Source: an uncultured Chloroflexia bacterium
Lineage (GTDB): Bacteria; Chloroflexota; Limnocylindria; Limnocylindrales; CSP1-4
Reading direction: 5' to 3'
Length of the DNA: 64,000 nucleotides
NCBI GenBank assembly: GCA_963806265.1
Contig: CAWDXT010000015.1
Span: 193,975 to 257,974, forward strand
Part shown: one piece after another, positions 1 through 64,000 of the stretch
Layout of the letters: each line of letters begins with the position of its first letter
How positions within the stretch are numbered: the stretch's first letter is position 1
The notes under the pieces: model-generated
Databases searched by the model: none
What the model was told of the DNA's origin: nothing
Seen by the model: only the letters and a program-made list of their open reading frames with translations
Made by a program: the position numbers and the translations under genes

Positions 1-1583
1 ACCAGGGCCCGGGTCGAGGCGACCATCGATGCCATCGAGGAGCGGACGGGCGCCGAGATCGTCGTCTACACGCAGCTCGTCCCGCCCTCGACCGACAGCG
101 CCGAGGCGGAGAGGCAGGCCCGGGCGCTGATGGACCAGTGGGGCGTTGGGCGGCGCGGCATCGACGATGGGCTGGTGATCCTGTTCGACCTCGACCAGAG
201 CGACACCTGCCACGGCCAGGTGCAGCTCTATGCCGGCCCCGGCTACCGGGCGACGTACCTGTCCAACAGCGAGCGCCAGGCGATCTACGAGAACGACATG
301 CTGCCGCTGCTGCGCAGCTGCGACCTCGACGGCGCCCTGCTGGCCGCGATGGACAAGATCGATGCGGCCGCCACGCCCGCCCACGCCGCGACGCTCGAGG
401 CCGCTCGCGTGGGCAATGCGATCCTGGGGCTGATGGTCGCTCCGCTGCTGGCGGTGCTGATCATCGGCTACACCGTCGTCTCGTGGCGGCGGTACGGAAA
501 GGACCCGGTCTACCTCGATGACGCGTCGATCCACATTCCGGCCCCGCCTGCCCAGCTGACACCGGCCGCGGGCGCCGTGATCCGCGACGGTCGCGCCACT
601 CGACGCGCGCTGACGACCGCCAGCCTCGATCTGGCGGCACGGGGTGAGATCGCGTTCGTGAGCGAGCCGACCGGGTTGTTCGGTCAGAGCACCGAGCTGA
701 GCATCACCACCAGCGAGGCCGAGCCCGCCGATCCGGTCGAGCAGGCCCAGCTCGACCGACGCCGGCAGCGACCCATGGACGAGGCGACCCGGTACCTCCA
801 GGACCGCCTCACCGCGCTCGGTGGCGCCGAGCGCCTGATCGATCACAGCGATCTGCTCAAGCTCGGGTCGGACGTCGGCGGCTTCGACCAGCGGATCGAG
901 CAGCATGTCACCGATCGCGGCTGGTTCACCGAGCGTCCGGGATCGGTCACCGGCCGTTGGGTGCTGCGCGGCGCGATCGTGGCGGCGCTGGGCGCCGTGG
1001 CGCTGTTCGGCGGCATCACGTTGCCGGCCGATGGGCTGGTGGTGGTCGGCGTCGCGCTGATCGCCTCGGGCGTGTTCGTCCTGATCCTGTCGCGCAGCAT
1101 GCCCGCCCGGACCATGCCCGGGGCGATGATCCAGGCGATGCTCGAGGCCTATCGGCGGACGCTGGTCAAGACGATGACCATGGCGCGGTCCATGGGCGAG
1201 GTGGTCGAGACGGCCGCGATCCCGTTGATCGAGCAGCCCGATGACGCGGTCGTGTGGGGCGTCGCGCTCGGTCTCCAGGGGGAGGTCGAGGAGGTCCTGC
1301 AGCGAACCGCCAAGGACCTCGAGACGGGAACGATCCGCGGCGGCTACCTCCCGCTGTGGTACTCGAGCGCCGGCAGCGGCGGCTGGGGGGCGGCAGCCAG
1401 GGGGGCTCCTGGGGCGCGGCACCTGGGCTCGCCAGCTCGTCGCCGATCCCGAACTTCGGCGGCATGATGGCCGCGCTGGGGACGATCGGCAACTCGCCCT
1501 CGTCTTCGGGCTCGGGTGGCGGCGGTGGCTTTGGCGGCGGTGGCTCCGGCGGCGGCGGCGGAGGCGCCGGCGGCGGCTTCTGA
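1..1583 (+). pseudogene. TPM-domain / DUF2207-like membrane protein; 5' end outside window; one frame change
   Basis: Frame 1 is open from nt 1 (EERTGAEIVVYTQLVP...QARALMDQWGVGRRGIDDGLVILFDL, a TPM phosphatase-like pattern). TM segments are present (LGLMVAPLLAVLIIGY; ALFGGITLPADGLVVVGVALIASGVFVLIL). The typical Gly-rich C-terminus GGGGGFGGGGSGGGGGGAGGGF lies in another frame (ORF 1254..1583). The switch is at the G6 run 1385-1390. Confidence 0.6.
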
Positions 1584-1698
1584 GCCGCGGCCTGATCGAA
1601 CGGGGCCGGTTCGCCCAGGGTGACTCGAGACGCAGCCGCGATGGCCGGCCCTGGCGAGGTGCCAGCGGGCCGCGAGGCGCGCACGCTACACTCGCCGC

Positions 1699-2034
1699 AT
1701 GGGAGCGACCGACACCATGGAAGTGTTCTTCGAGCTGCTGAACGGCGGCGACGTCAACGGCGCCGTGGCGCTCATGGACGAGCGCACCGAGATGCGCATC
1801 CACGTCGGGGACAACGCTCGGACGCTCCGCGGGGTGGAGCAGGTCGGCGGCTGGTTCCTGCGCGCCGACAAGGGGCTCAAGATGATCCCGGGCGACGTTC
1901 GCGACATGGGCAACACCTACCAGGCCGACCTGGTGGTGATCCGGCCCGGGGCACCCAGCCAGCACCTCGACGCCCAGTTCCGCGTCGAGGCGGGCAAGAT
2001 CACGTCGATCAACCTGACGCCCTACTCCCGGTAG
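1699..2034 (+). CDS. SnoaL/NTF2-like small protein
   Basis: 111-aa ORF with good coding look. MEVFFELLNGGDVNGAVALMDE...AGKITSINL resembles SnoaL-like polyketide-cyclase-fold proteins. No search was run. Confidence 0.5.
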   Translation: MGATDTMEVFFELLNGGDVNGAVALMDERTEMRIHVGDNARTLRGVEQVGGWFLRADKGLKMIPGDVRDMGNTYQADLVVIRPGAPSQHLDAQFRVEAGKITSINLTPYSR

Positions 2035-2124
2035 CGCCCTCACCGGACTCGCATCGAGCCCGATCTCCGCGTCCACGTCGTCGGCCCCCGCCGGCCGGCA
2101 TCGCCGGCTCACGGACTCCACCGC

Positions 2125-4225: not shown

Positions 4226-4657
4226 ATGTCGTTGCTTCATCGTCTGCTTGCCCCGACCACGGTTGCCCGCGCCCACTGCGACCTGCCGTGTGGCGTCTAC
4301 GATCCCGAGCAGGCACGGATCGAGGCCGAGTCCTGCTACAAGATCATCGAGAAGATGGGTGCCAACTCCGACCCGGCGTTCACGACGCGAGCGATCGCGA
4401 TCAAGGAGGAGCGGGCCGATCTCGTCAAGCATCACCTCGACGTGCTGTGGCACGACTACTTCAAGCCCGAGCACCTCGAGACCGTGCCCAACCTTCACGA
4501 CCTGTTCTGGAACGCGACCAAGCAGGTCTCGAAGGTCAAGGCATCGACCAACATCGACGACGCCAGGAAGCTGCTGGACATGATCGACGAGGTCGACGCC
4601 GCATGGAAGGCGACGGGCGGCGAGGGCAAGACCCGGGTCGCCGGCCGACCCAGCTGA
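4226..4657 (+). CDS. sodN: Nickel superoxide dismutase precursor
   Basis: MSLLHRLLAPTTVARA / HCDLPCGVYDPEQARIEAES: a cleavable leader followed by the Ni-hook HCDLPCGVY. GGAGG lies 6 nt upstream of ATG 4226. Confidence 0.95.
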   Translation: MSLLHRLLAPTTVARAHCDLPCGVYDPEQARIEAESCYKIIEKMGANSDPAFTTRAIAIKEERADLVKHHLDVLWHDYFKPEHLETVPNLHDLFWNATKQVSKVKASTNIDDARKLLDMIDEVDAAWKATGGEGKTRVAGRPS

Positions 4658-4681
4658 TCCCGGCCGACCTCGTGACACCCG

Positions 4682-4707
4682 GAGACCCCGTCACCCGACG
4701 GGGTCTC
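4682..4707 (+). terminator. GC-rich stem-loop between sodN and sodX (possible attenuator/terminator, no U-tract)
   Basis: Perfect 11-bp inverted repeat gagaccccgtc (4682-4692) / gacggggtctc (4697-4707) with loop accc, 25 nt after the sodN stop. Confidence 0.4.
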
Positions 4708-4712
4708 GTCGC

Positions 4713-5249
4713 GTGACATCCGCTCGAGGTGCCAACCCTCGGCGCATGGTGCCCGGTGAACGACGATCGGGCGGCGCCCTGGCACGCGTGCGTGGACCGT
4801 GGCGGGTGGCCGTGGCCGAGGGCTCGATGCTGCCCACGATCGAGCCCGGAGACTGGATCCTGGTCGATCCCACGACGAGGCGCTGGCCGCGACGCGGCAC
4901 CATCGTCGTGTTCCGCGAGCCCGGCAGCGAGCTGCTGGCCATCAAGCGCGTTGCAGGGCGTCCGGGCGACTGGGTCCCGTTCGCTGACGGCTGGCTGCAG
5001 CTCGCGGACGACGAGGCATGGTTGCTCAGCGACGCTGCGGTCGTGGATCCCGCAGCGAACGACGACCTCGACCATCCCGGCGACGGAGCGCCGATCAATT
5101 CCCGGCGCTACGGCCCGGTCTCCGTGACCGCGCTCGTCGGCCGGGCCTGGCTCCGCTACTGGCCGCCGCCGCGGGTCGGTCTCCTCGGCAAGGCACCGGC
5201 GCGCCCGGTGGCCGCAACCACCGTGCGCGAGGGCCAATTCGCGCCGTAG
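4713..5249 (+). CDS. sodX: NiSOD maturation protease (S26 signal-peptidase family)
   Basis: GSMLPTIEPGDWILVD and LLAIKRVAGRPGD are signal-peptidase-I boxes. The gene lies immediately downstream of sodN, as in known sodN-sodX pairs. The start codon is uncertain. Confidence 0.85.
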   Translation: MTSARGANPRRMVPGERRSGGALARVRGPWRVAVAEGSMLPTIEPGDWILVDPTTRRWPRRGTIVVFREPGSELLAIKRVAGRPGDWVPFADGWLQLADDEAWLLSDAAVVDPAANDDLDHPGDGAPINSRRYGPVSVTALVGRAWLRYWPPPRVGLLGKAPARPVAATTVREGQFAP

Positions 5250-5258
5250 GCTCTGGCG

Positions 5259-6538
5259 ATGGACGACCTTCGACGCTCGCTCGGCAGCTTCGATGCCGAC
5301 GCCCCGCTGCCGGCAGCGCCCGACCCCTGGGACTTCCAGCCGACCCCCAGGGCTCGCTCGGAACCGCCGTGGGCGATGGCCGAGATGATCGCGGCCGAGC
5401 CCGCGCTCGCGGTACGCGTCGGGCGCCGGGTGATGGCCGACGACACCGCGAGCGCCTCGGCGAGGCTCGTCCGTGAGACCGCCCAGGCCGGTGAGGAGGT
5501 CCTGGTCACGGGCTGCGGGACCTCGGAGCACGCCGCGATGGCCGTGGCCGCGATCCTGCGCGATGCGCGACGGCAGGTCCGGCTACCGGGCCCCGACCCC
5601 AGGTCCGTGCAGGCGTTCGAGCTCTCGCTCGACCCGCCGGCAGCCGGGCTCGTGATCGGGTGCAGCCACGAGGGTGGGACGGCGGCGACCAGCGCGGCGC
5701 TTGCGGCGGCCGGCGCCGGTGGAGCGCGTACCGTGCTGATCACCGCGAGCGCCGGCTCGCCCGCCGCGGCCGGGCGCGATCTCGTCGTGGCCACGCACGA
5801 GCTCGACCAGAGCTGGTGCCACACGGTCGGCTACGTGTCCCCCGTCACGGTGGCCGTCATGGTCGCCGGGGAGCTGGTCGGCGAGCGCCTGCAACCGGGC
5901 GCCGTCGGGCGTCGCCTCGCAGAGGGGATCGAGGCGGCGCATGGCGGAACGCCCGACGGTGATGGGCGTCCCGACGCGACGATCGCAGTCAGCCTCGCAG
6001 CCGCCCACCGGCTGCTGATCGTGGCATCTGGCGCCGACCGGATCACGGCCCGGGAGCTCGCGCTCAAGATCGAGGAGGCGTCCTGGCTGCCGGCCGCGAC
6101 CCGGGATCTCGAGACGTTCCTCCACGGCCATCTCCCGCCACCGGTCCCGAGCACGGGTCTCCTGCTCGTGCTGCTCGAGCGCGACGGCCTGGACGCCGCG
6201 CACGAAGCGAGCGCGCCAGGCCCTGCGCGCGGCCGCCGCGGTCGGGATGCGGCCGCGGCGGCCCTGCTCGGCAGCGAGGCGGCGAGTCGCATCCCCGCCG
6301 AGCTGACGCCGGCCGGGCGCGTCGTGGTGCCCGAGTCGACCGAGCTGGCCGGAGCGGCGGCGACGCTGCTGGGCGCGGCGACACCGCTGCAGCTGGTCAC
6401 GCTCGCCATCGCGCGCGGCCCGGGACACCAATCCGGATCCCGATCCGACGCGACGACCCCATCTACCTGCGGGCGGCCGACCTGGCGGACGACCCGAGGC
6501 TCCGCGCTCAGGGCCCCGCCGATCGGCGCGTCTCAGCT
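5259..6538 (+). CDS. SIS-domain sugar isomerase/aminotransferase-like protein (FrlB/GlmS C-terminal-domain-like); 3' end uncertain
   Basis: Two SIS-like blocks are present (VLVTGCGTSEHAAMAVAAIL; LLIVASGADRITARELALKIEEASW...LHGHL). After about 6420 the annotated frame turns into low-quality sequence. The expected ...RG.NPD.IRRDDPIYLRAAD tail is readable only in other frames, so a frameshift is probable. Confidence 0.6.
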
Positions 6539-7493
6539 GATCAGCACCTCGCCGGCCAGGTCGATCATGTCCAGGTCGCGGGCGATGAAGTCCTGGAGCA
6601 TCATCCGCTCGACGCCTGCCTCGGCGAAGCGCGCGACCATCGCCCGAGCCTCGTCCGGCGTGCCGTGGATCCAGCGCGCGCGGCGTGCCTCGAACCAGTC
6701 GGCCCCGCCGTCGGGCTCCCCGAACGCCTGCGAGCAGCGCGGACTCCCGTCGTCGGACCTCGTCCGCCGTCGCTCCCGATCAGGATCCCGACCATCGCAG
6801 AATGCGTGATCGTGCCGGGGTCGCGTCCGGCTGCCCGCAGCGTTTCGTCGAGCTCGGCGAGCTTGTGGGCGGCGACCTCGGGGCTGGACGACGACAGGTT
6901 GAACTCGTCGGCAAATCGTGCGGCAAGCCGGAACGAGCGGGGCGAGCCCTCGCCGCCGATGATGATCGGCGGCCGGCCCGTCTCGCGGCCCGGGATCGAG
7001 CCCGACTTGGGCCGCATGCGGGCGTCCTCGATCGCGTAGTGGCGACCCAGGAACGACCAGCCGTCCGGCTCGTCCCACAGGCCCTGGAGGATCTCCAGCT
7101 CCTCCTCCAGGTGGTCGGCTCGCTCCCTGATCTCGGGGAACGGGAACCCGTGGCGGCGGTGCTCCTCCTCGTGCCAGCCGGCGCCGAGGCCCACCTCGAC
7201 CCGGCCGCCGCTCATCTCGTCGACCGTCAGCACCACCTTGGCAAGGTTGCCCGGCGTGCGGAACAGGACCGGCGAGACGAGGACACCCAGGCCGAGCGTC
7301 GTCGTCTCGCGCGCGAGCCCGGCGAGCACGGCCCAGGCATCGGTCGTCGGCTGGTCGCTGTCGCCGGGGAAGCTCTCGTAGTGATCGGACCGGAACAGGG
7401 CCTCGAACCCGGCTGCCTCGGCTCGCCTGGCGACGGCCAGCTGCTCCTCGTAGGACAACCCCTGCTGGGGCTCGATCATGAGCGCGAACCGCA
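6533..7493 (-). pseudogene. LLM-class (luciferase-like, F420-type) oxidoreductase; frame disrupted near 6770-6800
   Basis: VRFALMIEPQQGLSYEEQLAVARRAEAAGFEALFRSDHY...GRVEVGLGAGWHEEEH. GTG 7493 is preceded by GGAGGAG. The C-terminal FGEPDGGADWFEARRARWIHGTPDEARAMVARFAEAGVERMMLQDF is in another frame. The span of 961 nt is not a multiple of 3. Confidence 0.75.
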
Positions 7494-7529
7494 CGATCCC
7501 TCTCCTCCGTGCCGCGCGAACCTTCCGAT

Positions 7530-7558
7530 TTGACGGAACTATTCGTGTGGTGTAAATA
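7530..7558 (+). promoter_or_regulatory. Sigma-70-like promoter for the MarR-MFS unit (TTGACG-17-TAAATA)
   Basis: TTGACG at 7530-7535, a 17-nt spacer, then TAAATA at 7553-7558, inside a locally AT-rich patch. ATG 7568 lies about 10 nt downstream, giving a short or absent leader. TTCGTGT direct repeats sit at about 7542 and about 7560. Confidence 0.4.
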
Positions 7559-7567
7559 CTTCGTGTT

Positions 7568-8258
7568 ATGCGAACCAACGTCCTGACGGGACCGATGACG
7601 CCAACGTCCGACCGTGCTCGAGGCGGCCGAATGCCGAGCCGCCGACGAGGACGCCGCGCAGGCGCCGAGGCGGCGATGGCGAACCTGGGCGAGCCGTCGG
7701 CTCGCTCCGCTGCGCGGGCTCGCAGCGGCTCGTTCGCCTCGGGCATCAGCATGACCCACTTCCACGTCCTCACGCTGCTTCGCCATCACGATGCGATGCC
7801 GATGGGCCGCATCGCCGAGATCCTCGACGCCTCGGTGTCGAGCGCGACCGGGATCATCGACCGGATGGAGGAGCGGGGGCTCGTCGAGCGGGTGCGGGTT
7901 CCCGACGACCGCCGGGTCGTGCTCGTCCGGCCCACCGCAGACCGGCAACGACCTGGTCGACGAGGCGGAGCTCGTGAAGAGCGAGATCCTCGCCTCCGCG
8001 TTCATGCGGATGGAGCCCGCGCAGCTCGATCGGCTCGCGCTCGCGGCCACCGACCTGGAGCGCGCCATCGGCGAGGAGCTGGCCAGCGACCCCGGACAGT
8101 ACGGCGCGCTGACCCAGATCGCCCAGGACCACCGACATCCGAGATCCGGTCCGGCGGCCCCGCAGCCGCCGGGCAAGCCGTCCCCGCGTCCCCCCTGCCC
8201 GGTCCCACCGGCGCCTGACGAAAGGAAGCCCAGCCCCATTGGAAGCCATGCCCTTTGA
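7568..8258 (+). pseudogene. MarR-family transcriptional regulator; frame change near 7930-7945
   Basis: MTHFHVLTLLRHHDAMPMGRIAEILDASVSSATGIIDRMEERGLVERVRVPDDRRVVLVRPT (a winged HTH) continues in the next frame as GNDLVDEAELVKSEILASAFMRMEPAQLDRLALAATDLERAI. Confidence 0.7.
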
Positions 8259-9980
8259 GAGCGGGCCGGAGACCCCGGATCTCGCTCATGACCCCGCGCT
8301 GGGTCTCGATCGACGCACGAAGTTCGAGATCCTGGGCGCCGTCCTGCTCGGGATGTTCCTGGGCGCGCTCGACCAGACGATCGTCGGGCCGGTGCTGCCC
8401 CACATCGTCGGCGACCTCCAGGGTGCCGACTACTACGCCTGGGTCGTCACCGCCTACCTGCTGACCAGCACGGTCAGCGTGCCCGATCTACGGCAAGCTG
8501 TCGGACCTGTACGGCCGTCGGCCGCTGCTGCTGCTCGGCATCGGCATCTTCCTCGTCGGCTCGGCACTGTCCGGCCTGAGCCAGACCATGTGGCAGCTGA
8601 TCCTGTTCCGCGGCATCCAGGGCCTGGGCGCCGGCGCCCTGTTCCCGATCTCGCTCGCCGTCATCGGCGACCTGTTCACGCCTGCCGAGCGCGGCAAGTA
8701 CCAGGGGCTGTTCGGCGCCGTGTTCGGCGTCGCGTTCCTGCTCGGGCCCGGCCTCGGCGGGTTCCTGACCGATACCTTCAGCTGGCACGCCATCTTCTAC
8801 GTCAACATCCCGATCGGGATCGTCGGCCCTGGTCGTCATCGCTCGCCTGCTGCCGACGGTCAAGACCGAGGGCGCCCGCAACACGATCGACTATCTCGGG
8901 GTCGGCCACGCTGGTCGTCGGCCTGGTGCCGATCCTGATCGCGCTGACGATCGCCGAGGACGGCAACTGGGGCAACCCGTGGATCTGGGCGCTGTTCGCC
9001 TCGGCGCCATCGGGCTGGTCGCGTTCGTGTTCGCCGAGTCGCGCGCGCAGAGGAGCCGATCGTCCCGCTCCACCTGTTCCGCGACCGCACCTTCAGCGCG
9101 TCGATGGTCGCGATCTTCCTGGCCACCTTCGGCTTCGGGGCGGCGATCATCTTCCTTCCCCTCTACTTCCAGGTGGTCCAGGGCGCCAGCGCCACCGAGT
9201 CCGGCTACATGCTGCTGCCGTTCCTGATCGGCCTGATCTTCGCCTCCATCGTGTCGGGCCAGATCGTCGCCCGGACCGGCCGCTATCGGACCCTGCTCGC
9301 TGGTGGCCATGGTGTTGCTGATCGTCGGGCTGGGACTCATGACCCAGCTGCGGTTCGACACGGCCGACACGCGCTGTGGCGTGGATGTTCATCGCCGGCC
9401 TGGGTGTCGGACCGACATTCGCCGTGTTCACGATCGTGGTCCAGAACGCGGTGCCGTTCCACGAGCTGGGCGCTGCCACCAGCGACCTGACGCTGTTCCG
9501 CCAGATCGGAACGACCGTCGGCATCACGATGGCGTTCACGCTGTTCCGCAACAACCTGACCTGGGACCTGCTGCGGACCGAGATCATCGGCGCCGGTGCT
9601 CCGGCCGCCGCTGGTCCCCCAGACGCCGCCGGCCGGCTTCGACCCGGCCGCGCTGACCAATCCCGCCGGTGCGCGGCAGCGTCCTGGACTTCCTGGCCCA
9701 GCTTCCCGCGCAGCTCCAGGCGATCTTCGTCGAGGGCTTCCACAGCGCGTTCACGCTGGCCATCGCGAACAGCATGTGGCTGGGCGTGGCGGCGACCGGC
9801 CTGGCCCTGGTGGCCACGCTCTTCCTGCGCGAGATCCCGCTGCGCCAGACGCTCGGGGCACACGAGGACGACATGGTCTCCGAGGCGGCGATCGCCGTCG
9901 AGGGGCCCAATCTGTCGGCGCCCATTCCGGTGACCGAGTCCGTCCACCGCACGCCGATGGCCCGGCACACGGGCGAGTAG
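8248..9980 (+). pseudogene. MFS drug-efflux transporter (EmrB/QacA 14-TMS type); at least 5 frame changes
   Basis: Conserved blocks are spread over all three frames: LGAVLLGMFLGALDQTIVGPVLPHIVGDL; MWQLILFRGIQGLGAGALFPISLAVIGDLFTPAERGKYQGLFGAVFGVAFLLGPGLGGFLTD; MVAIFLATFGFGAAIIFLPLYFQVVQGASATESGYMLLPFLIGLIFASIVSGQIVARTGRY; FIAGLGVGPTFAVFTIVVQNAVP; FVEGFHSAFTLAIANSMWLGVAATGLALV. Confidence 0.8.
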
Positions 9981-11732: not shown

Positions 11733-13580
11733 ATGAGCTCGCGTGGTCGTCCGGTGCCGCGTCCCACGGGGGGACTCCCCGTCGCCATCCTGGTTACGGT
11801 CCTGCTCGTCGCCTCGTGCGGCGACGGCACGAGCAACACGCCCAGCGCACCCGCATCAGGCTCCAGCGCGGGGTCGGCGTCGCCCGCCACGCCCGCGGCA
11901 CCCGCCACGCCCGCGGCACCCTCCATGCAATCCGCCTCAGCCACGCCGGTGGCCACAGCGACGCCGGCCGCAACCGATGCCTCCGCCTTTGCCCCGGGGG
12001 CGCTTGCGGTCACCGTGTCGGACAGGATCAGGGTGCGGTCGAAGCCCGGCGTCAGCGACGATTCGGTCCGCTACCAGCCACTGCTCCCGACCGGGACTCA
12101 GCTCGTGATCACCGGTGGTCCGGTCAATGCCGCCGGGTACTCCTGGTACCGGGTCGTCCCGCTGAACATGACGCTGGAGGGAGGGGTCGAAGAGGGATGG
12201 GTGGCGATCGCCGACCACGATGGCACGCCGTGGGTGGCGCTGGCCGATGATCCCACGCCGGGCTTCGAGCTCGCCTCGGTCGCGACGAACCGCCCGGCGC
12301 CGAGCGTCGCGGCGGCCCACGACGGCGCCGCGAGCATCAACGGCTTCGGTCTCTCGCTGTACCGCGAGCTGCTGCTCGGGAGCTCGCTCGCGGGCGACCC
12401 GACCAACGTCGTGGTCTCGCCAACGAGCGTCGCGCTCGCGCTCACCATGGCTCGCGCCGGCGCCCGAGGCGCCACGGCCACGGAGCTTGACAAGCTCCTC
12501 GAGACGTCCGGGTGGGATGCCCTGAGCGGCGGGATGGCCTCGCTGCAACAGCTGCTGGCCACGCGGGACACCGCCTGGACCGACTGGGATGGCACTACCC
12601 ACGCGCTCGCGCTCCGGATTGCAAACGCGGCGTTTGCGCAGGATGGATGGGCGATCCGCCCTGAGTTCCTGCAACAGATCGACCAGGCTCTCGGCGCAGG
12701 CCTTGGGCTGCTGGACTACCAGGCGGACCCGGAGGCAGCACGCGAGGCGATCAACGGCTGGGTGGCCCGCCAGACCGTCGGTCGCATTCCCCATCTTCTC
12801 GCCACCGGCGACGTCAGCGAGCTCACCCGGCTCGTGCTGGTCAACGCGATGTACCTCAAGGCGCAGTGGGAGGTCGAGTTCCAGACCGGAGGCACGAGGG
12901 ACCGGGCGTTCACGATGCCCGACGGCACTCGCGAGCAGGTGCCCACGATGACGCTCCAGGGTGGCCAGTCCGTCCCGTACGCTTCGGGCTCCGGCTGGCA
13001 GGCGACCGAGCTGCGGTACCTCGGCGCGGACGGCTCGGCGCCGCTCGCGATGACACTGATCGTCCCCGACGACCTGGCGCGCTTCGAACGCGGCCTCACC
13101 AGCGGGAGGCTCACAACCATCGTCGACCGTCTGGATGCGGAGCGAGACGGCCTGCAACGGCTGACGGACGCGGAGTCGACCGCCGACCCCTCCTGCTCCT
13201 TCTATGCCTATGAGGTGCACCTGCTGATGCCGCGGTTCGGGATCGACACCCGGGCTGATCTCAAGCCGGTGCTCGCGGCGATGGGCATGGTCACCTCCGG
13301 CGACCCGGGTTCGGCCGACTTCAGCGGGATCACCAGCCCGAGCTCCGTCTACATCTCCAAGATCATTCACCAGGCGAACATCGATGTCGACGAGCACGGC
13401 ACCGAAGCCGCGGCCGCGACCGCCATCGGCATGGATACGACGGGTGGCTGCGGTCGGCCCCAGCCGGAACGGACCATCACGCTGCGGCTGAACCGGCCGT
13501 TCCTGTTCGCGCTGCGGGACCTCCAAACCGGCGCGATCCTGTTCCTGGGCCACGTGGTCGATCCCACCGCGCGCAGCTGA
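11733..13580 (+). CDS. Lipoprotein serpin (serine protease inhibitor) with an N-terminal SH3b-like domain
   Basis: Signal peptide and lipobox (LPVAILVTVLLVASCG). SH3-like segment (IRVRSKPGVSDDSVRYQPLLPTGTQLVITGGPVNAAGYSWYRV). Serpin core (NVVVSPTSVALALTMARAGARGATATEL...LVLVNAMYLKAQW...) with an inhibitory hinge/RCL GTEAAAATAIGMDTTGGCGRPQPERTITLRLNRPFLFAL. Confidence 0.85.
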   Translation: MSSRGRPVPRPTGGLPVAILVTVLLVASCGDGTSNTPSAPASGSSAGSASPATPAAPATPAAPSMQSASATPVATATPAATDASAFAPGALAVTVSDRIRVRSKPGVSDDSVRYQPLLPTGTQLVITGGPVNAAGYSWYRVVPLNMTLEGGVEEGWVAIADHDGTPWVALADDPTPGFELASVATNRPAPSVAAAHDGAASINGFGLSLYRELLLGSSLAGDPTNVVVSPTSVALALTMARAGARGATATELDKLLETSGWDALSGGMASLQQLLATRDTAWTDWDGTTHALALRIANAAFAQDGWAIRPEFLQQIDQALGAGLGLLDYQADPEAAREAINGWVARQTVGRIPHLLATGDVSELTRLVLVNAMYLKAQWEVEFQTGGTRDRAFTMPDGTREQVPTMTLQGGQSVPYASGSGWQATELRYLGADGSAPLAMTLIVPDDLARFERGLTSGRLTTIVDRLDAERDGLQRLTDAESTADPSCSFYAYEVHLLMPRFGIDTRADLKPVLAAMGMVTSGDPGSADFSGITSPSSVYISKIIHQANIDVDEHGTEAAAATAIGMDTTGGCGRPQPERTITLRLNRPFLFALRDLQTGAILFLGHVVDPTARS

Positions 13581-21717: not shown

Positions 21718-21744
21718 CACCCGGGTCGGAGCGGTGGCGCCCTG

Positions 21745-27046: not shown

Positions 27047-27976
<930 letters not shown>

Positions 27977-44328: not shown

Positions 44329-44456
44329 GAGTACTCCGTGAAGGGCTTCGGCTGCCGGGCATGGCGCGACATACCAGGACCGGGGGCCCCGACCACGTGT
44401 GACGAGAGGGGCTGCTCGCGTGTGACGGCTCGATCCCCCCGGCCCGCTCATCGCAC

Positions 44457-49476: not shown

Positions 49477-49604
49477 GCCCGCTCCCGCCACGAGGGACCG
49501 ACCAGCGTGGCCGCCCGGGATCCCGACCGAGGTCGCCTGCCGACACACGAATCGCCGATCACGATCACGATACGGCCATGGCGTTCTCGCACCACACCCG
49601 GACC

Positions 49605-50663
49605 ATGGCGCGGGTCGCGATCGTCGCCGCCGCCACGGCGATCGCCCTGGCGGGTCTCCCGGGCGTCGGCGCGGCGCCCGCGGCGGCCGCGGGCCTGCCG
49701 CGCTGGACGGGCGGCCTGGACCTGTATCGGAACGGGACGTTCACCACCCAGCAGACGTGGCTATGGTGCACCGCCGCTGACGTGCAGATCATGCGGAACA
49801 TCGTCGACCACCAACGTGACCACTCGCGATCGGCCCAGCAGCGCTACTTCGACGACATGCGGCACCACAACCGGTATTCGATCCCGGTCTCGGACGGCGT
49901 CGACCCGGTCGGCTGGGCGGCCGGGCTCCGGCGGTACGTGGATCGCCGCTACCAGCTGGTGACGAGCGGCAGCTTCAAGGCCGCGCTCCGATCAGCCGTG
50001 CGCAATCTGCGGCTCACCGGCCTGCCGGTCGGGCTCACGGTCTCGCACGGCAACCACGCCTGGGTGCTCACCGGGTTCACGGCGACGGCCGACCCGGCCG
50101 TCACCAGCCACTTCACGGTCACGGGCGTGCGGGTCGTCGGTCCCCTGTGGGGGCTCCAGAGCCGCAGCTATGGCTACGACATGCGGCCGGACACCAGGCT
50201 GACACGACGGCAGCTGCGGTCCTTCTTCACGCCGTGGCACTACGCCGGCGTGCGGATGGCGTGGGAAGGTGACTGGGTCTCGGTGCAGCCCGGGCCAACG
50301 GCAGCGGATCGGGCCCGCGCCGCCACGCCCGCACCGGTGACGACGACCCCGACGCCCCCCTCGACGCGGTCGCCAGGCCCGCCGGCGGCGGGTGTGATGG
50401 CCTCGCCGGCAGACGACACGCCCTCACCGGCGGGTGACACGCCGCCGGCGGCCTCGATCGAGCGGGGAGCAGCGGCGCTCGTCGTCGGCACCCGCAAGAC
50501 GTCCGAGCCGAACCCATCGCCGCGCCCGGTGCCGGCCGCCACGCGGGAGCCGGCGATGCTCGACCTCGGTGGCGCCATCGCCGTGCTGCTCGTGGTGATC
50601 GCCGGGGCGGGCGCGGCCGGGCTGGTCGCGTCACGCCGTCGGCGCCGCCCGGGCGACCGGTGA
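49605..50663 (+). CDS. Secreted papain-fold (C39-like) putative cysteine peptidase with a Pro-rich linker and C-terminal TM anchor
   Basis: Signal peptide MARVAIVAAATAIALAGLPGVGAAPAAAA. QQTWLWCTAADVQIM (Gln...Cys) and GNHAWVLTGF (His). C-terminal LGGAIAVLLVVIAGAGAAGLVASRRRRRP. The family call is tentative. Confidence 0.5.
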   Translation: MARVAIVAAATAIALAGLPGVGAAPAAAAGLPRWTGGLDLYRNGTFTTQQTWLWCTAADVQIMRNIVDHQRDHSRSAQQRYFDDMRHHNRYSIPVSDGVDPVGWAAGLRRYVDRRYQLVTSGSFKAALRSAVRNLRLTGLPVGLTVSHGNHAWVLTGFTATADPAVTSHFTVTGVRVVGPLWGLQSRSYGYDMRPDTRLTRRQLRSFFTPWHYAGVRMAWEGDWVSVQPGPTAADRARAATPAPVTTTPTPPSTRSPGPPAAGVMASPADDTPSPAGDTPPAASIERGAAALVVGTRKTSEPNPSPRPVPAATREPAMLDLGGAIAVLLVVIAGAGAAGLVASRRRRRPGDR

Positions 50664-54944: not shown

Positions 54945-55993
54945 TCAGCTTCCTGCGAGCGCCTGCTCGGCGGGCGCTGCCGCTGCGCGGGCACGAGGCT
55001 GCTGATCGAGCGCCGCTCGGCCCTCGGGGACTCGATCGGCGAGGAAGGCCCCGACCGCGTCCGCGCACAGGTCGGGCCATCTCGATCCACGGGAGCATGC
55101 CCGGCGTCCTCGATGACCTGGAGCCGCGCGTTCGGCATCCGGTCGACCAGCTGCCGACCATCGCCCGGGGTCCCGAGCGGATCCCGGTCGCCCCAAAGGA
55201 ACAGCGATGGCGTCCCGAGCCGGCCGAGCTCGGGCTTGAGCGCATGGGTGCCGACCGACCCGCGGGCGAAGATGCCCGAACCCGCAGGAACGAAGATCCG
55301 TTCCACCATCGTGCGGAAGCTGCGAGAAGCTCCAGGCATGCTCGCACCGGCCGCGAGGCACTCCAGCATGGCATCGGACGCACGGTCGGGATCCGCGAGC
55401 AACCGGCCACGCGCGAGGCCGGCCCGGGCACCGGCACCATCCTTCGGTGGCCGAAGCACCGTCGCGTACAGCAGCGCGTTGAGGCCCCGGGTGCCCACCA
55501 GCCGGTGGTAGCGGAGCCGCGATCCGAGCGACACCGGCCGGTGTTGGCGGGCTCGCCGAGCAAGCACGAGCTTCGAGACCCGCTCCGGGTGGGCCAGGGC
55601 GAACGCCATCGCGAAGTAGCCGCCCATCGAGTTGCCCACGATCGCAGCGCGGTTGCGGCCCATCGCATCGAGCAGTGCCTCCAGGAGCGTGACGCCGTGC
55701 TCGCGCAGGTCGACGCCGCGGAAGTCGAACATCGTCGACAGCCCGTGCCCGGGCGGTCGACCATCAGCAGCTCGTAGCGTGAGCTCAGGCGTGCGGCGAG
55801 GGGCACCCACATGGCCGCCGGCGAGTTGCCGGGGATCATCAGCACCGGGTCCCCGGTTCCCGCCGACAGCACGTGCACCCGTCCCAGGGGCGAGCCGAGG
55901 TCGAGGAACGTGGAGGTGGCGTCGAGGCCGTTTTCGGCGAGGACGCCGCTCCTGTGCCTGGCGAAACCGCGCCGCTGCCGCCTGGCTGTTCAT
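54945..55993 (-). pseudogene. Alpha/beta hydrolase (meta-cleavage-product hydrolase-like); at least 4 frame changes
   Basis: The pieces are MNSQAAAARFRQAQE; VHVLSAGTGDPVLMIPGNSPAAMWVPLAARLSSRYELLMVDRPG; HGLSTMFDFRGVDLREHGVTLLEALLDAMGRNRAAIVGNSMGGYFAMAFALAHPERVSKLVL; PSLFLWGDRDPLGTPGDGRQLVDRMPNARLQVIEDAGH; LCADAVGAFLADR. Confidence 0.75.
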
Positions 55994-57076: not shown

Positions 57077-57865
57077 CTATTCCTGCCGATTGAACGCGAT
57101 CACCGCGCCGCCCAGCAGGATGGCACCCAGGATCCCGACCACCACGATCTCCTCGACGATGGTCATCGTGTGCCCGAAGACCATGACGCCCAGCCCGCTG
57201 CTGGTGCCGAGGAAGATCTGGCGGATGGCGTCGACGCCGTAGGTCAGCGGGTTGATCTTGGAGATGACCGCCAGCCAGGCCGGCACGTCGTTCACCGGGA
57301 AGAAGACGCCGGCCAGGAAGATGAGCGGGAAGATCAGCAGCTGGATGACCAGCTGGAAGCCCTGCTGGCTGGTCATGAACGTCGCGATCAGGATGCCCAG
57401 CCCGGACAGCCCGAGCGCCAGGATCGCCACGATCGGGATGAGCGCCGAGCACGATCGCGGGCGTGAGCGTCACGCCGACGATCGGCGCCAGGACGAGCAT
57501 GATCACGACCTGGAGCAGCACCGGTGATCGTCGCCCCGATCGCCTTGCCCAGGACGATCCCCGCTGCGCCCGATCGGGGCGACCAGGATCTCGCGCAGGA
57601 AGCCGTACTCGCGGTCCCAGACGACCGACACGCCGGCGAACAGCGAGCTGGTCAGCACCGTCATCGCCACGATGCCCGGGTACATGAACTGGATGAAGTC
57701 GACGCCCGGCGCCACGGTGCCGATGACATTGGCGAACCCGGCACCGAAGATCACCAGGAACAGCAGCGGGAAGGCCAGGCTGGAGATGATCCGCGAGCGC
57801 TCGTTGACGAACCGCAGCAGCTCCCGGTAGGCGACGACCCAGGTGCCGCGCCAGATCTCGGCCAT
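57077..57865 (-). pseudogene. ABC-2 type transporter permease; 2-3 frame changes near 57430-57530
   Basis: MAEIWRGTWVVAYRELLRFVNERSRIISSLAFPLLFLVIFGAGF...VVWDREYGFLREILVAPI; middle LLQVVIMLVLAPIVGVTLTPA; C-terminal half MAILALGLSGLGILIATFMTSQQGFQLVIQLLIFPLIFLAGVFFPVNDVPAWLAVISKINPLTYGVDAIRQ. Confidence 0.75.
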
Positions 57866-57930
57866 CAGTCGCGCGACCTCGCCTCCCCCAGCGCCCGCCC
57901 CTGGAGCATCTGCTCGCGGGCGTCCAGCTC

Positions 57931-58935
57931 CTAGTCCCGGATCTCGTGGCCGGTCAGGGTGATGAACACGTCATCGAGGCTGGGGCGCTGCAGGCTGATC
58001 GACTGGCAGCGGCTGCGGGAAGGTGCGGACGAACTCGGGCAGGAACGTGTCGCCGGCCGGGACGTGGAACCGGACCACGCCGTCCTGGACCCCGGGCTCG
58101 ACGTCGTAGCGTCGCCGGACCTCGTCGGCCGCGGCGGCCGGGTCGTCCACCGAGAACGTGATCAGATCGCCGCCGACGGCGCGCTTGAGCCCGTCCGGGC
58201 GTGTCGAGCGCCACGATCTCGCCGCGGTCGATGATCGCGATCCGGTCGCAGTTCTCGGCCTCGTCCAGGTACTGGGTGGTGAGGAAGATCGTGAGCTGCT
58301 CCTGCTCGCGCAGGCGGAGCAGGTACTCCCAGATGTGGCGCCGGGTCTGGGGGTCGAGGCCGATCGTCGGCTCGTCGAGGAAGAGCACCTTGGGGTGGTG
58401 GACCAGGCCGCGCGCGATCTCCAGGCGGCGCTTCATGCCGCCCGAGAAGGTGCGCACGCTGCCCTTGCGCCGATCCCACAGCTCGACCATCTCGAGCAGC
58501 TCGCGGATGCGCCGGTCGCGGACCTCCGCCGGGCACGTCGTAGGCATAGGCGTGGAACCGAAGGTTCTGCTCGGCGCTCAGGTACTCGTCGACGGTCGTC
58601 TGCTGGAACACCAGCCCGATCGAGCGCCGGACCTCGCTCCGCTGGCGGGCGACGTCGAAGCCGTTGACCGTCGCCCGGCCGCCCGACGGGTGGAGCAGCG
58701 TGCACAGCATGTTGATCGTGGTCGACTTGCCGGCACCGTTCGGGCCCAGGAAGCCGAACAGCTCGCCCTCGGCGACCTCGAACGAGACGCCCTTGACGGC
58801 CTCGATCGCCCCGAACCGCCGAGCGAGCTGATCGACCTCGATCGCGTTCGGGGTTCCGGGACCGGGCCGCATTCGCCCATCGTTCGACCCGGGCGCAGCA
58901 GTGGAACGCTCCGGGGCAACCTCGACCTGGGTCAT
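57931..58935 (-). pseudogene. ABC transporter ATP-binding protein (DrrA-like); at least 3 frame changes
   Basis: FGFLGPNGAGKSTTINML (Walker A)...LVFQQTTVDEYLSAEQNL; then SGGMKRRLEIARGLVHHPKVLFLDEPTIGLDP (signature/Walker B)...FLTTQYLDEAENCDRIAIIDRGEIVALDTP; tail LDDVFITLTGHEIRD-stop. Confidence 0.85.
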
Positions 58936-60266: not shown

Positions 60267-60601
60267 GACTCGAATCGTAGGTCGCTGGCGAGCTGGGGAA
60301 GCCGTGTAAGTGCTCTCGAGCCGTGGCCGCAACTCCGTGGTCACCGATGGCGGGCGGCCAGGAGCCACGTTGCGTCGGGGCGCGTCGCAGGTGCAGCGCG
60401 TATGGACGGGTGCCGTAGGATCGAGGTGACCCCACGTTCGCGATCAGGATTGGCGTTCCCATGACGACTTTGGCGGCCCCATGACGATCGACCTGGAAGC
60501 ACTGTCACTCGAGGAGCTGACCGAGCTCCAGAACGATCTCGCGGCGGTGCTGCGCCGCCGGGCCGGGGCCCCCACGGATCGCCGGGACGGAGCTCCACGA
60601 C

Positions 60602-61813
60602 GTGATCCGGGTCGGGATGCACCGCTACCGGGCCGTGGTGGAATCGGTGGCCCCGTGGACCAGGCGGGACACGTACCTGACCGAGTACCGGCGCTGCGTC
60701 CTGGGGATCAGCCTGGGGAGCCGAAGCTCGGAGGGCGCCCGGTTCGAGGCCGCCGTTCGCTGGGTGGCCGAGAACTACGACGAATGTGCGCTGGGCGTCG
60801 GGGACGGCATGTACCGGTACACGCTGCAGGTCACCGACGGCCGATCGGGGAACCCGCGGCGCGACATGACGCCGGAGGCCTGGCACGCGCTGGCGATCGA
60901 GGCCGGCCGGGAGTTTCAGCAGCACGCCGAGCAAATCGTCGCCCCGTATCGTGATCAGTGCCGGTTCACGTGGTATCCGATGTCGAGGATCGTGGCGGGC
61001 AGCTCGTTCCGGGAGGACCTCGCCGCCTACCGGGCCCTCTACGAGACCAACGATCCGTATCGCAACCTGGTCCACGAGTTCGCCGCAGGCTACCTCGCGC
61101 GTGTGCTCCAGACCGATGGGACGTCACCGCCTGACCCTGCCCATCACCAGGCTGCCTGCGACTACCTCCTCGAGGAGAGCGCGATCTTCACCCAGCTGTG
61201 CCGCGAAGGTTGGGAGCTGCTGGTCTACCCGGGCTCCATCGCGATGTTCTCGGCGATCGCCGAGGGCCGGTTCCCCGAGGTGCCGGACCCGATCAAGAGG
61301 CTGGTCCACGTCGCCCTGAAGCTCAAGCGCGGCAGCCTGTTCTTCGCCGAGAGCACCGAGTATCCATATCCGGCCCTGCCGGATGATCACGTTCACGCCG
61401 ACTCGGACGAGGACGCGATCGCGCCGGGCGTGCTGTGCGAGTTCGGCGAGGACGAGTGGCGGCGATTCATGCCCTACACCACGCGCCGGCACATGCTGGC
61501 GGGCGAGATCCTGGCGCCTGCGGGTGACCTGGACCGCAGCCTGTACATCCTGCTCGAGGGCGATCTCGAGGTGCTCGACGGCGACTGGCGATCGGGGAAG
61601 CTCACGCAGCTGTCGACGCACCATCCGGGCTCGGTGCTGGGCGAGCGAAGCTTCGTCGACGGCCGGCCGAGAACGACCACCGTGGCCGCCCTCGGCGAGT
61701 GCGAGGTGCTGGTCCTGCCGCAGAAGCAGATGCAGCGCATGCGGCAGCGGGATCCGGCGCTCGCGGCAGCGCTGCTGTTCGACATCAGCCGGGAGCTGGC
61801 GCTCAAGGGCTGA
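60602..61813 (+). CDS. tRNA-dependent cyclodipeptide synthase (XYP-type)-like domain fused to a C-terminal cyclic-nucleotide-binding domain
   Basis: RRCVLGISLGSRS...AAVRWVAENYDECALGVGDGMYRYTL...CDYLLEESAIF...LLVYPGS parallels AlbC ALIGISAGNSYFS...LLQWAGQRFERTDVVYVD...NYVLAEAPLF...CYH, compared from memory. The C-terminal LYILLEGDLEVL...GSVLGERSFVDGRPRTTTVAALGECEVLVL is a CAP_ED phosphate-binding cassette. The start is GTG 60602 or ATG 60617. A 5' extension from ATG 60481 is possible. Confidence 0.7.
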   Translation: MIRVGMHRYRAVVESVAPWTRRDTYLTEYRRCVLGISLGSRSSEGARFEAAVRWVAENYDECALGVGDGMYRYTLQVTDGRSGNPRRDMTPEAWHALAIEAGREFQQHAEQIVAPYRDQCRFTWYPMSRIVAGSSFREDLAAYRALYETNDPYRNLVHEFAAGYLARVLQTDGTSPPDPAHHQAACDYLLEESAIFTQLCREGWELLVYPGSIAMFSAIAEGRFPEVPDPIKRLVHVALKLKRGSLFFAESTEYPYPALPDDHVHADSDEDAIAPGVLCEFGEDEWRRFMPYTTRRHMLAGEILAPAGDLDRSLYILLEGDLEVLDGDWRSGKLTQLSTHHPGSVLGERSFVDGRPRTTTVAALGECEVLVLPQKQMQRMRQRDPALAAALLFDISRELALKG

Positions 61814-61880
61814 GCCCGCGAGCTCCGCGGTCGCTGCGTTCGCGGTGCTGGTCGCCGCGCGGGTCGCCGGCCACGGAACC

Positions 61881-64000
61881 CTAGGGCAGCGGCGCCCACT
61901 GCAGATACAGCTGGCCGTTCACCAGCCAGATCGTCGCGAACCCGTCCGTGGTCGCGAACCTGACCGGGTTGCCGGTCAGGTAGTCGAGATTGACCTGGTC
62001 CACTCCCGAGCCGAGCGACCGGCGCCGTCGCGACCTGGACCGGCGGCGAGCCGTCGGCCGGCTGGCGCAGCAGCTCCTCCTCGGCGCGCGAGCGCTGGAG
62101 GTACACCCCGGTCGCATCGCCGCCCACGACCGTACCGTCCTCGATGGGGATGGTGGCGGACGGACCTCCCGTCCCTTCGATGAACACGGCGTTGCCCGAC
62201 TGGTCGGTCGTCCACACGCCGTCACCGGCCGGGAACACGCCGAACAGGCTGCCCAGGTCGACGAACGCCTGGTCCTGGTCGGTGAGCCGGGACAGGCTGT
62301 TCTGGGTCGTGTAGCCGTACACGGCCGTCGGCGCGTCCTGGCAGCAGCCGCCGATGTTGTCGAGCGCCACGCTCCGACCCGGCTTGTTGGTGCCAGGGTC
62401 GATCCGGGTGAGCCTGGCGCCCGTCTGTGAGCTGAGGTCGTAGGCGGACGTATCCACGAACCAGACCGAGGTACCCATCGAGACGATCCGTGGACCCGTG
62501 TAGCCGAACGTGCACGGGATGGGGAAGGTCGCCTGGACGTCGAGCGTGTCCGGGTCGAACCGGGTGACGGTGCATACGTTGCCGCTCGAGTCATTGCTCA
62601 GGCCTGACGCCCACAGCGAGCCGTCGGCGACGTGGAGGTCAGTCGCCCGCGGCTCGTCGACCTGCTTGAGCACCTTGCCGGACTTCGGATCGATGGCCAG
62701 GATCTGGGGTTTCCCGGCAGCCGTGTCGACCGAGAGGTCGATGATGCCGTCGGCCGAGATCGCCTGGCCCTGGATATCAACCGCCTCACCGATCGGCGTC
62801 ACGCCGGTCCCGCCGGCGCCGGGCGAGATCGACGGCGCGGGGCTCTGGGACGCCGGCGCCGCGATCCCGCTGTCGTACAGGTCCTGCTGCGCCTCGTACC
62901 CGCCGGCGAAGCCGTCGTCGCCGGTCGCTGCCACATCGAACACGCACTCGGGGTGAAGCTCCTCGTCGGTGACGGTCGCGCAGGCCGTCTCGGCGGTCAG
63001 GAGCACGTCCGGCGGAAAGCTGGGCTGGGCCTGGTTCGGGGCGTCGGCCGGGAAGTCGCGGTCCGTGAACGTCGTCGTCGACGTACCTGGGTCGTAGTCG
63101 AAAAGCGAGGTCGCGTCGGTCACCCGCCAGGCGTCGGCGAACTGGCCGTACAGAACCTGGTCGCGGGTCGCCTGGTCCGGCGCGGCCGGCAGCTGGGTGC
63201 CGTCGGGGAGCGCCGGCACGCCCATCCCGCCCGGAGTGATCGGGCCGAGCAGGCCCGTGCCACCGCTGCGCAGCTCATCGGATGGCTGGATCACGGCATG
63301 GATGCCCCACTTCCCGGCCGACAATGCCCACAGGATGGTCCCGTCAGGCATGTCGACCTGGATCCCGTGGTCGACGGCACGGACGTCGCCCGCACCGACG
63401 GGCACCGCGGATGACGGATCGACATCCTGACCGTCCACCTTGACGTCGAGGCCACCGATCGCGTCGACATAGATGCCGACGCGGTGCTCGTCCACCCTCG
63501 CCGCGATCGCCTGGTTGACGGAGAAGGGCACGGTCTCGTACGGCACCTGGCGCACCTGGATCTCGACGCTCCCGTCGGGCGAGCGCAGGAGCGTGAACTC
63601 GCCCGCGCCCTGGAAGTCATACCGGTAGCGGTTGACCGTGCGCAGGTGCGGGTCGCCGTTCGAATCGGGCAGCTTGCCTGGCATGGGGTGCTGGGCTGGA
63701 TCGACGGCAGCGGCTTGCAGTACTCGTCGAGCGCGTGCCCTGTGACCGTGGCGTTGGCACCTGCGAGGCTGCCGGTCAGCGCGAGCTCGAACACGTCGGG
63801 CGCCGGCTGCAGATCCGGGCCGGCGAACCGCGTCCCGGCCGGGCAGTCACAGCCGCCGCTCTTCGTACACAGCCAGCGCTGCGCGGTGTCGGTCTCATCG
63901 CGTCCCGTGTCGGTGTGAATGCGGACGTGCCCGGTGGCGTGGATCTCAACGACGTCCGCCTGCGAGGTGAAGGTCCAATCCTGGTTCTGCACCTCGACGG
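61881..64000 (-). pseudogene. Large secreted protein with a von Willebrand factor type D (VWD, GDPH motif) domain and a beta-propeller-like C-terminal region; N-terminus outside window; 2 frame changes (about 63690, about 62010)
   Basis: DSNGDPHLRTVNRYRYDFQGAGEFTLLRSPDGSVEIQVRQVP...VDGQDV (VWD pattern). Upstream piece in another frame WTFTSQADVVEIHATGHVRIHTDTGRDETDTAQRWLCTKSGGCDCPAGTRFAGPD. C-terminal piece VDQVNLDYLTGNPVRFATTDGFATIWLVNGQLYLQWAPLP-stop in a third frame. Confidence 0.6.

Follow-up and report, generated by a model that had tools for sequence, protein, structure and literature searches.

Clustered one-base frame breaks in a 64-kb window of a Limnocylindria assembly are very probably consensus errors

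The 64-kb stretch of DNA analysed here (hereafter the window) contains numerous well-conserved genes that can be read at full length only by switching frame, which raises the question of whether the organism is losing these genes or whether the breaks were introduced when the sequence was built. The initial annotation favoured local indel error over long-term pseudogenisation. The breaks were located, counted in the window and across the assembly, and compared with close relatives.

Census and location of the frame breaks

Same-strand frame switches without a stop in the upstream frame were counted with a codon-usage HMM, which gave 33 across the window, or 5.2 per 10 kb. Individual one-base events were placed by frameshift-aware protein-to-DNA alignment against intact orthologues from the syntenic sister species and from other public contigs. 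Plain nucleotide alignment to the sister species (80–85% identity) produced many spurious paired gaps and was dropped in favour of the protein-guided procedure. Relatives from the same genus (nucleotide identity about 70%) lacked orthologues of the VWD and ABC transporter genes, which were taken from public protein searches. With about 55 orthologue pairs, the alignment resolved 77 one-base breaks, 50 insertion-type and 27 deletion-type, distributed over 20 genes, and about one in three genes of the window was affected. One further gene, encoding a hypothetical protein near 31680, was flagged by the HMM alone. Inspection of an HMM chain running from GyrA into a downstream ribose-phosphate pyrophosphokinase-like gene suggested two adjacent genes wrongly joined; thus, the HMM candidate list holds some false positives (about 0.5–0.8 per 10 kb in controls).

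All switch sites listed in the initial annotation were recovered, mostly within 30 nt, with the site near 31680 backed by the HMM only, and the frame joins proposed there were upheld by alignment to intact orthologues in the 20 genes. Single Pfam matches also spanned the junctions: MFS_1 aligned over 346 of its 347 positions (1–346) across six of them, and AA_kinase, Pyridoxal_deC, ABC_tran and ABC2_membrane each gave one match across the respective junction or junctions. The broken frames exist in the deposited record as one-base indels. They form blocks at 5.2–9.7, 29.2–31.1, 42.0–45.1, 55.1–55.9 and 57.4–58.5 kb, with eight more sites isolated. The clustering of breaks among intact neighbours, as first described, was borne out, since pyrB, pyrC, ppk2, the serpin gene and the CDPS ORF are all unbroken.

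The first block (5233–9677) holds about 21 one-base events in five genes on both strands. These are an S26 peptidase gene with an uncertain break at 5233; a SIS protein gene broken at 6414 and 6439, with a compensated pair at 6198/6260; a luciferase-like (LLM) oxidoreductase gene broken at 6728 and 6768; a MarR gene broken at 7686, 7741, 7937 and 8158; and an EmrB/QacA MFS gene with 10 breaks (8482, 8825, 8904, 9002, 9052, 9299, 9373, 9381, 9610 and 9677). With the breaks allowed for, these genes are 76.6–90.9% identical to their orthologues. The second block (29212–31130) carries 27 events in 1.9 kb, again on both strands, distributed over the gene of a 327-aa lipoprotein on the plus strand (14 events) and, on the minus strand, the gene of a 140-aa protein (six) and pyrE (seven within 680 bp). 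Despite these seven events, pyrE is 92.0% identical to its orthologue, and the adjacent pyrB, pyrC, pyrD, pyrK and pyrR are all intact. The hypothetical gene beside this block, on the minus strand, has a probable break at 31623–31684 (31623/31684) that was detected by the HMM only, the gene being absent from the sister species and having no orthologue to align; a Pfam search with it gave no match.

The remaining three blocks lie on the minus strand. The one at 42058–45064 includes seven events: five in an anti-sigma factor gene (42058, 42461, 42766, 42893 and 43344) and two in a galT/HIT-like gene (44544 and 45064) that retains 94.9% identity to its orthologue, with an intact sigma-factor gene between the two. 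A further seven events fall in an alpha/beta hydrolase gene (55080–55945). In the block at 57443–58533 all events are insertion-type, and they break an ABC-2 permease gene at 57443, 57519 and 57562 and an ABC ATPase gene at 57900, 58006, 58199 and about 58530. An intact homologue of the ATPase is 92% identical. The tail of the ATPase gene also contains an in-frame TAG (57931–57933), a single substitution-type stop, whereas the initial annotation had noticed no in-frame stops.

Among the isolated sites, a TPM-phosphatase-family gene on the plus strand has one deletion-type break at a six-G run (1385–1391), where frame 1 matches the 585-aa orthologue as far as about 1416 and frame 3 does so from 1389 onwards. 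On the minus strand, single breaks occur in the carbamate kinase gene arcC (insertion-type, 17326; conserved at 85%), in a beta-CASP/metallo-beta-lactamase hydrolase gene (deletion-type, 24299), in the linker of a CtaA-CtaB fusion gene (deletion-type, 27974; 92.2% identity to a 629-aa orthologue) and in a second MFS transporter gene (insertion-type, 59609). A PLP-dependent decarboxylase gene on the plus strand has an insertion-type break at 37549. The gene of a VWD-like secreted protein of roughly 1,080 aa, which extends beyond the window end on the minus strand, is broken at 62016 (insertion-type) and at about 63664–63690 (deletion-type); its homologues are single proteins of 1,090–1,200 aa. 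A further switch on the plus strand (60550–60578), at a G4/C5 run directly upstream of the CDPS ORF, itself intact, is an unverified candidate and possibly a false positive. Isolated breaks such as that in the G6 run at 1385–1390 are not provable as artefacts one by one.

Extent across the assembly and in essential genes

The whole assembly comprises 38 contigs and 3.1 Mb, with a CheckM completeness of 62.67% and a contamination of 0.81%; contiguity is high yet marker-gene completeness is low, as expected of a consensus-indel artefact. The same HMM detected about 1,339 switches in it, or 4.3 per 10 kb. Applied to 63 kb of the syntenic sister species it gave none, and in three relatives at least 92% complete it gave 0.5–0.8 per 10 kb; the signal in the window thus greatly exceeds chance. 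The switches were not enriched near contig ends, and the 16S and 23S rRNA genes are absent from the assembly. The 29.6-kb contig C25 is clean, with one candidate, and 220 of the 598 5-kb bins are as clean as this contig.

Comparison with close relatives, which the initial annotation had proposed as a check, demonstrated that every broken gene having an orthologue in the sister species is intact there. Two independent assemblies both have this sister-species contig intact; between them, 42 kb show 35 substitutions, a single 4-nt gap and no one-base indel. Elsewhere, intact homologues of the MFS and ABC ATPase genes reach 88–92% identity.

Essential genes are also affected. The only loci of infB (at least four frame pieces), ffh (two) and ftsZ (two) are all frame-broken, and no piece of these three genes meets the family cut-off in one frame; dnaK, rpoD, glyA, pyrG and metG are broken as well. 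After stitching, IF-2, DnaK, FtsZ, RpoD, Ffh, GlyA, PyrG and MetG each gave one continuous NCBIfam profile match across the junctions. These breaks cannot be functional lesions in a viable cell. The rpoB and rpoC genes are intact, and their cleanliness and that of C25, taken alone, could suggest that essential genes are spared; selection sparing the core genes was considered on the basis of rpoB and rpoC and rejected as a general pattern in view of the eight broken genes named above.

Constraint, lesion spectrum and clustering

Once the breaks were allowed for, identity to orthologues was 84.1% in 17 broken genes versus 85.6% in 35 intact ones (Mann-Whitney p = 0.55). In comparisons with 16 outgroup orthologues, the MFS gene with 10 events was no more distant than the intact sister copy, scoring 1.4 points higher, and the GC3 codon bias was wholly kept in the broken segments. 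The lesions consist of 77 one-base indels versus one in-frame stop, and no larger deletions were found inside the aligned genes. Insertion-type events exceed deletion-type events in the assembly as a whole (955:384) as they do in the window.

The sequence context of the events was random. The longest run within 3 nt of a site averaged 2.44 versus 2.31 at random positions (p = 0.13), and this lack of homopolymer enrichment counts against one type of error, not against artefact as such. Inserted bases follow base composition, only 9 of 25 being equal to an adjacent base. No shared motif or slippery sequence was recognised in 68 local alignments, the contexts of which were heterogeneous. The sites are clustered, with a variance-to-mean ratio of 3.8 in 5-kb bins and with 33% of neighbouring sites less than 300 nt apart versus 13% expected under random placement, and the blocks extend across gene and strand boundaries. 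Genome-wide, HMM switches are denser where local GC is higher (0.43 rising to 1.96 per 2 kb; Spearman 0.19). Local GC at the 77 verified events of the window was similar to that at random positions (0.718 versus 0.714, p = 0.16); the genome-wide trend may be an effect of detection power and was not relied upon.

Origin of the breaks and consequences for annotation

Taken together, these data indicate that the frame breaks in the window are, in all likelihood, indel errors of the assembly consensus and not biology. The preference of the initial annotation for indel error is thus sustained by the breakage of essential genes, the absence of excess divergence, the nearly pure indel spectrum with its insertion excess, and the random context; the blocks crossing genes and strands, the intact sister orthologues and a CheckM value of 63% with 38 contigs add further support. 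A technical cause, whether low read depth, platform or failed polishing, is inferred. On this reading the assembly, from a soil Limnocylindria bacterium, is a metagenome-assembled genome of high contiguity and low accuracy; presumably the noisy long reads behind it were of low or uneven depth, or its polishing was uneven. Within stretches of about 1–6 kb, single bases would then have been wrongly inserted, or less often lost, at a density of 0.2–1.4%, the rest being nearly clean, and the genes of the living organism would be intact. Since a spurious base shifts the frame, such errors lead to truncated or split gene calls and to an under-count of CheckM markers.

Similar effects have been described for long-read MAGs, in which indels shift reading frames, depress CheckM completeness and raise the number of apparent pseudogenes, more severely so at low coverage (Cusco et al., 2021, PMC8103633; Sereika et al., 2022, PMC9262707). 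The present assembly resembles long-read assemblies and MAGs, whether from Nanopore or PacBio CLR data, in that one-base indels split conserved genes genome-wide, more so where the consensus is weak, and in that CheckM is lowered, apparent pseudogenes are inflated and the orthologues are full length in better assemblies. The IDEEL test of Watson and Warr from 2019 is said to measure indel-truncated ORFs in long-read assemblies. Unlike the published Nanopore signature and a classic polished Nanopore consensus, in which homopolymer deletions dominate, the events here have a random, non-homopolymer context, and insertions outnumber deletions about 2:1. In appearance, this spectrum is closer to near-raw long-read error, or to a consensus derived from very few reads.

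Genuine large-scale pseudogenisation, with hundreds of genes inactivated by frameshift in a lineage undergoing reductive decay, is highly improbable. The number of broken genes, which runs into the hundreds, would agree with it, as would the clean contigs with core genes such as rpoB and rpoC, and a single block might conceivably correspond to a dead operon. Mycobacterium leprae, Sodalis and young endosymbionts likewise have disrupted frames in a large share of their genes; however, those genomes spare essential genes, whereas this assembly does not, and the broken sole copies of infB, ffh and ftsZ, together with dnaK, rpoD, glyA, pyrG and metG, contradict this reading. Genomes in reductive decay combine frameshifts with stops, deletions, raised substitution and a deletion bias, none of which accompanies the breaks here beyond the single stop set against 77 indels. 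Bacterial pseudogenes reportedly show a deletion bias (Mira, Ochman and Moran, in 2001), and the insertion bias here is opposite to it. The broken genes have no excess substitution and no larger internal deletions, keep their GC3 codon bias and show no homopolymer preference at the breaks, and a pyrE with seven breaks among five intact pyr genes is likewise hard to reconcile with decay.

A more limited possibility is that most breaks are artefacts and a minority of the isolated ones reflect genuine recent pseudogenisation or phase variation; the TPM, beta-CASP, CtaAB, arcC, PLP decarboxylase and VWD-like genes would be the candidates. A few real pseudogenes occur in any bacterial genome, these sites fall outside the dense blocks, and the six-G run of the TPM gene is a natural context for slippage. 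Even so, we regard this as unlikely: the background of about eight sites in about 45 kb outside the blocks far exceeds the zero that the same method gave over 63 kb of the sister species, conservation is 92% for CtaAB (haem A/O synthesis) and 85% for arcC, and no feature separates the isolated sites from the other breaks. That the DNA is correct and the cell restores its frames by pervasive programmed frameshifting or by insertion/deletion RNA editing is scarcely credible, even though the proteins read perfectly after frame repair. As in prfB, dnaX, IS transposases and Euplotes nuclear genes, the full-length product is obtained only via a change of frame; programmed sites, however, have a defined slippery motif, act in one direction and are conserved between relatives, whereas the window has both +1 and −1 events without a common motif, none of its sites is shared with the sister species at 80–85% nucleotide identity, and the kilobase-scale clustering is independent of gene and strand. 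To our knowledge, no bacterial system restores frames at such a scale. An unknown, motif-independent editing or recoding process that repairs real indels in the living Limnocylindria cell, including those in infB, ftsZ and ffh, either on the transcript or in the course of translation, deserves almost no credence.

Under the consensus-error explanation, the breaks are biologically of little interest, the organism itself almost certainly having these genes intact, and are relevant mainly to annotation. Within the genome collection searched, this assembly apparently represents its species, and gene calls at probably well over a thousand sites across it will wrongly indicate truncation, splitting or pseudogenisation. 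Broken marker genes probably lower its completeness estimate of 63%, and other genomes of the same genus with few contigs and roughly 70% completeness may share the problem. Gene loss, pseudogenes, odd short ORFs or novel domain architectures deduced from this assembly should be checked by frameshift-aware alignment first.

Detection and verification of frame switches

The source genome (3.10 Mb, 38 contigs) had a CheckM completeness of 62.67% and a contamination of 0.81%; homologs of the window proteins carry the source name “Candidatus Limnocylindrales” in database records. The window occupies C15:193975–257974 of this genome. Its G+C content is 71%, and at this value long ORFs were listed in all six frames, so that ORF lists were unusable for judging frames. 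A codon model was therefore trained on 913 long, high-GC3 ORFs from the source genome, and segmentation was performed with a seven-state Viterbi algorithm (six coding frames and a non-coding state). A candidate was recorded where, within 60 nt, the coding potential passed from one frame to a different one on that strand and the upstream frame contained no stop. This HMM gave 33 candidates in the window. When the segments were stitched over the junctions, the Pfam domains AA_kinase, Pyridoxal_deC, ABC_tran, ABC2_membrane, and MFS_1 spanned them as single matches. The stitched MFS transporter covered MFS_1 profile positions 1–346 of 347 across six junctions, and its intact 575-aa homologs showed 88–91% identity over 100% of the length.

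One intact MFS homolog is located on a 438-kb public contig of a sister species (ENA ERZ25039549 contig_42704), whose loci L029, L032, L035, L037, and L038 are collinear with positions 1 to ~60,000 of the window at 80–88% nucleotide identity. All gene calls on this contig are full length. Each of its proteins was aligned to the window with a purpose-written protein-to-DNA aligner that permits one-base insertions and deletions; a ~1,100-aa homolog of the VWD-like protein and the ABC ATPase and permease pair from contig L039 served as additional references. In 20 genes the alignment verified 77 one-base events, of which 50 were insertion-type and 27 deletion-type; it detected none in 35 other ortholog pairs. 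Thus, the frame breaks described in the initial annotation are present, and all its switch sites were recovered, mostly within 30 nt. More events were verified than were listed there, since two events of opposite type lying close together return the reading to its original frame, as in the MarR (7686/7741) and SIS (6198/6260) genes. The initial annotation noticed no in-frame stops, but a single TAG occurs at 57931–57933 (− strand), within the C-terminal tail of the protein encoded by the ABC ATPase gene. Homologs have Ser, Glu, or Ala at this position, and the conserved ELDAREQMLQG carries on in frame downstream. A substitution error is the probable cause of this codon, given its position in a block dense in indels.

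Distribution of the breaks and control genomes

The suggested clustering of breaks in blocks beside intact genes was confirmed. Five blocks were found, at 5.2–9.7 kb (21 events), 29.2–31.1 kb (27 events, one per 74 bp), and 42.0–45.1, 55.1–55.9, and 57.4–58.5 kb (7 events each), with 8 isolated sites outside them. The blocks run over gene boundaries and both strands. The clean genes pyrD, pyrK, pyrC, pyrB, and pyrR adjoin the broken pyrE, and a clean sigma factor gene lies between the broken anti-sigma factor and galT-like genes.

The whole source genome contained 1,339 HMM candidates, or 4.3 per 10 kb (5.2 in the window). Judging from the window, this is an undercount, since the HMM found 33 candidates there against 77 verified events. 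The genome-wide sites were over-dispersed (variance-to-mean ratio 3.8 in 5-kb bins, 220 of 598 bins empty), with bin counts correlated across ~2–6 kb and one third of neighboring sites less than 300 nt apart, versus 13% expected under random placement. The rpoB and rpoC genes and the 29.6-kb contig C25 were clean. This is consistent with breaks arranged in blocks, and it counts for less than the essential genes found broken in other parts of the genome. The density of the candidates climbed with local GC, but this rise was not reproduced for the verified window events; the trend may reflect detection power.

The identical HMM and filter gave no candidates in 63 kb of the sister species and 0.5–0.8 per 10 kb in three same-genus genomes with completeness of at least 92%. 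As a yardstick of natural variation, two sister-species assemblies made independently were compared over 42 kb; they showed 35 substitutions and one gap of 4 nt between them, and no one-base indel. In G008 (loci L021–L024), a same-genus genome (72% complete, 20 contigs), 2.0 frame switches per 10 kb were detected, with an insertion-type excess of 14:2. Five same-genus genomes (G001, G008, G009, G015, and G018) show only 71–77% completeness despite having 2–30 contigs, and their consensus sequences may contain errors of this kind.

Gene content of the window

Several segments of the window have no counterpart on the collinear contig of the sister species: an intact serpin gene (12057–13577, +; Pfam Serpin 2–370 of 370), an NAD-dependent epimerase/dehydratase gene (18996–19952, +), one or more hypothetical genes in the pyrE–pyrD interval (31.3–32.6 kb), a glyoxalase-family gene (46474–46878, +), a 361-aa ORF with no Pfam match (49578–50660, +), and an ABC-2 transporter pair (56.9–59.0 kb). 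These look like ordinary between-species differences in gene content. A fusion of CtaA (COX15) and CtaB (UbiA-type heme O synthase) of ~630–650 aa (27050–28992, −), joined by a low-complexity Thr/Ala/Gly linker, is conserved as a 629-aa protein in the sister species. The gene of an S26-family peptidase follows that of a nickel superoxide dismutase (Sod_Ni) (4226–5246, +), and the two form the usual SodN–SodX maturation pair. An MFS transporter with a fused C-terminal cyclic-nucleotide-binding domain (20053–22062; 567 aa in the sister species) adjoins a small c-di-AMP receptor-family protein (CdAMP_rec). A cNMP-binding domain likewise stands at the end of the CDPS-like ORF (60602–61810), and a G4/C5 run lies just upstream of this ORF (60550–60578, +). 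The coding potential may switch frame at this run; if so, CDPS would gain an N-terminal extension of ~30 aa, starting from the ATG at 60481.

Origin of the frame breaks

Essential genes were located by motif searches, and the stitched proteins were scanned against NCBIfam. IF-2 (four junctions), GlyA (two junctions), DnaK, FtsZ, RpoD, Ffh, PyrG, and MetG each gave one continuous match to an equivalog profile over the junctions. Whole-genome profile searches found infB, ffh, and ftsZ only as single loci split across two to four frames, with no piece reaching the family cut-off and no second copy. With the DNA as deposited, a cell would be unable to start translation, to target its membrane proteins, or to divide.

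Mass pseudogenization is expected to spare essential genes, to bring extra divergence, and to leave a mixed lesion spectrum with a deletion bias. All four expectations failed. Beyond the broken essential genes, no sign of relaxed constraint was seen: with breaks allowed for, mean identity to the sister ortholog was 84.1% for 17 broken genes versus 85.6% for 35 intact ones (p = 0.55). The pyrE gene, with seven events in 680 bp, still showed 92% identity, and the galT-like gene 94.9%; a relative-rate comparison put the ten-event MFS gene, if anything, closer (by 1.4 points) to 16 outgroup orthologs than its intact sister copy. The lesions were almost only indels (77 versus one stop), and insertions exceeded deletions both in the window (50:27) and genome-wide (955:384). 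The inserted bases (G 12, C 8, T 3, A 2) mirrored the base composition and were identical to a neighbor in only 9 of 25 cases, and no homopolymer enrichment was found at break sites (p = 0.13). This spectrum is unlike a natural one. Restoration of the frames by programmed frameshifting or RNA editing is extremely improbable, given that the sites share no motif, differ in event direction, and are not conserved in the sister species. A real lesion at any isolated site, for example at the G6 run (1385–1390), is unlikely, and nothing was found in its support.

The textbook signature of polished Nanopore data is homopolymer deletion, whereas the random context and insertion excess observed here resemble more closely what a consensus built from a handful of noisy reads might give. 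Without high depth or polishing, indels in Nanopore consensus sequences break up gene calls (PMC9262707). Long-read MAGs with uncorrected indels combine few contigs with low marker completeness, exactly as in the source genome, and in the published MAGs frameshift correction raised completeness from ~85% to 94–95%, with the largest effect at low coverage (PMC8103633).

From five independent lines of evidence, rather than from reads, we infer that the frame breaks are assembly errors, as the initial annotation preferred: indispensable genes are broken, broken genes show no relaxed constraint, the lesion spectrum is not natural, the blocks disregard genes, strands, and pathways, and few contigs coincide with low marker completeness. 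The breaks are not a biological feature. The value of this result is a warning: the source genome requires frameshift-aware handling, and its apparent truncations, split genes, and “pseudogenes” warrant no biological interpretation.
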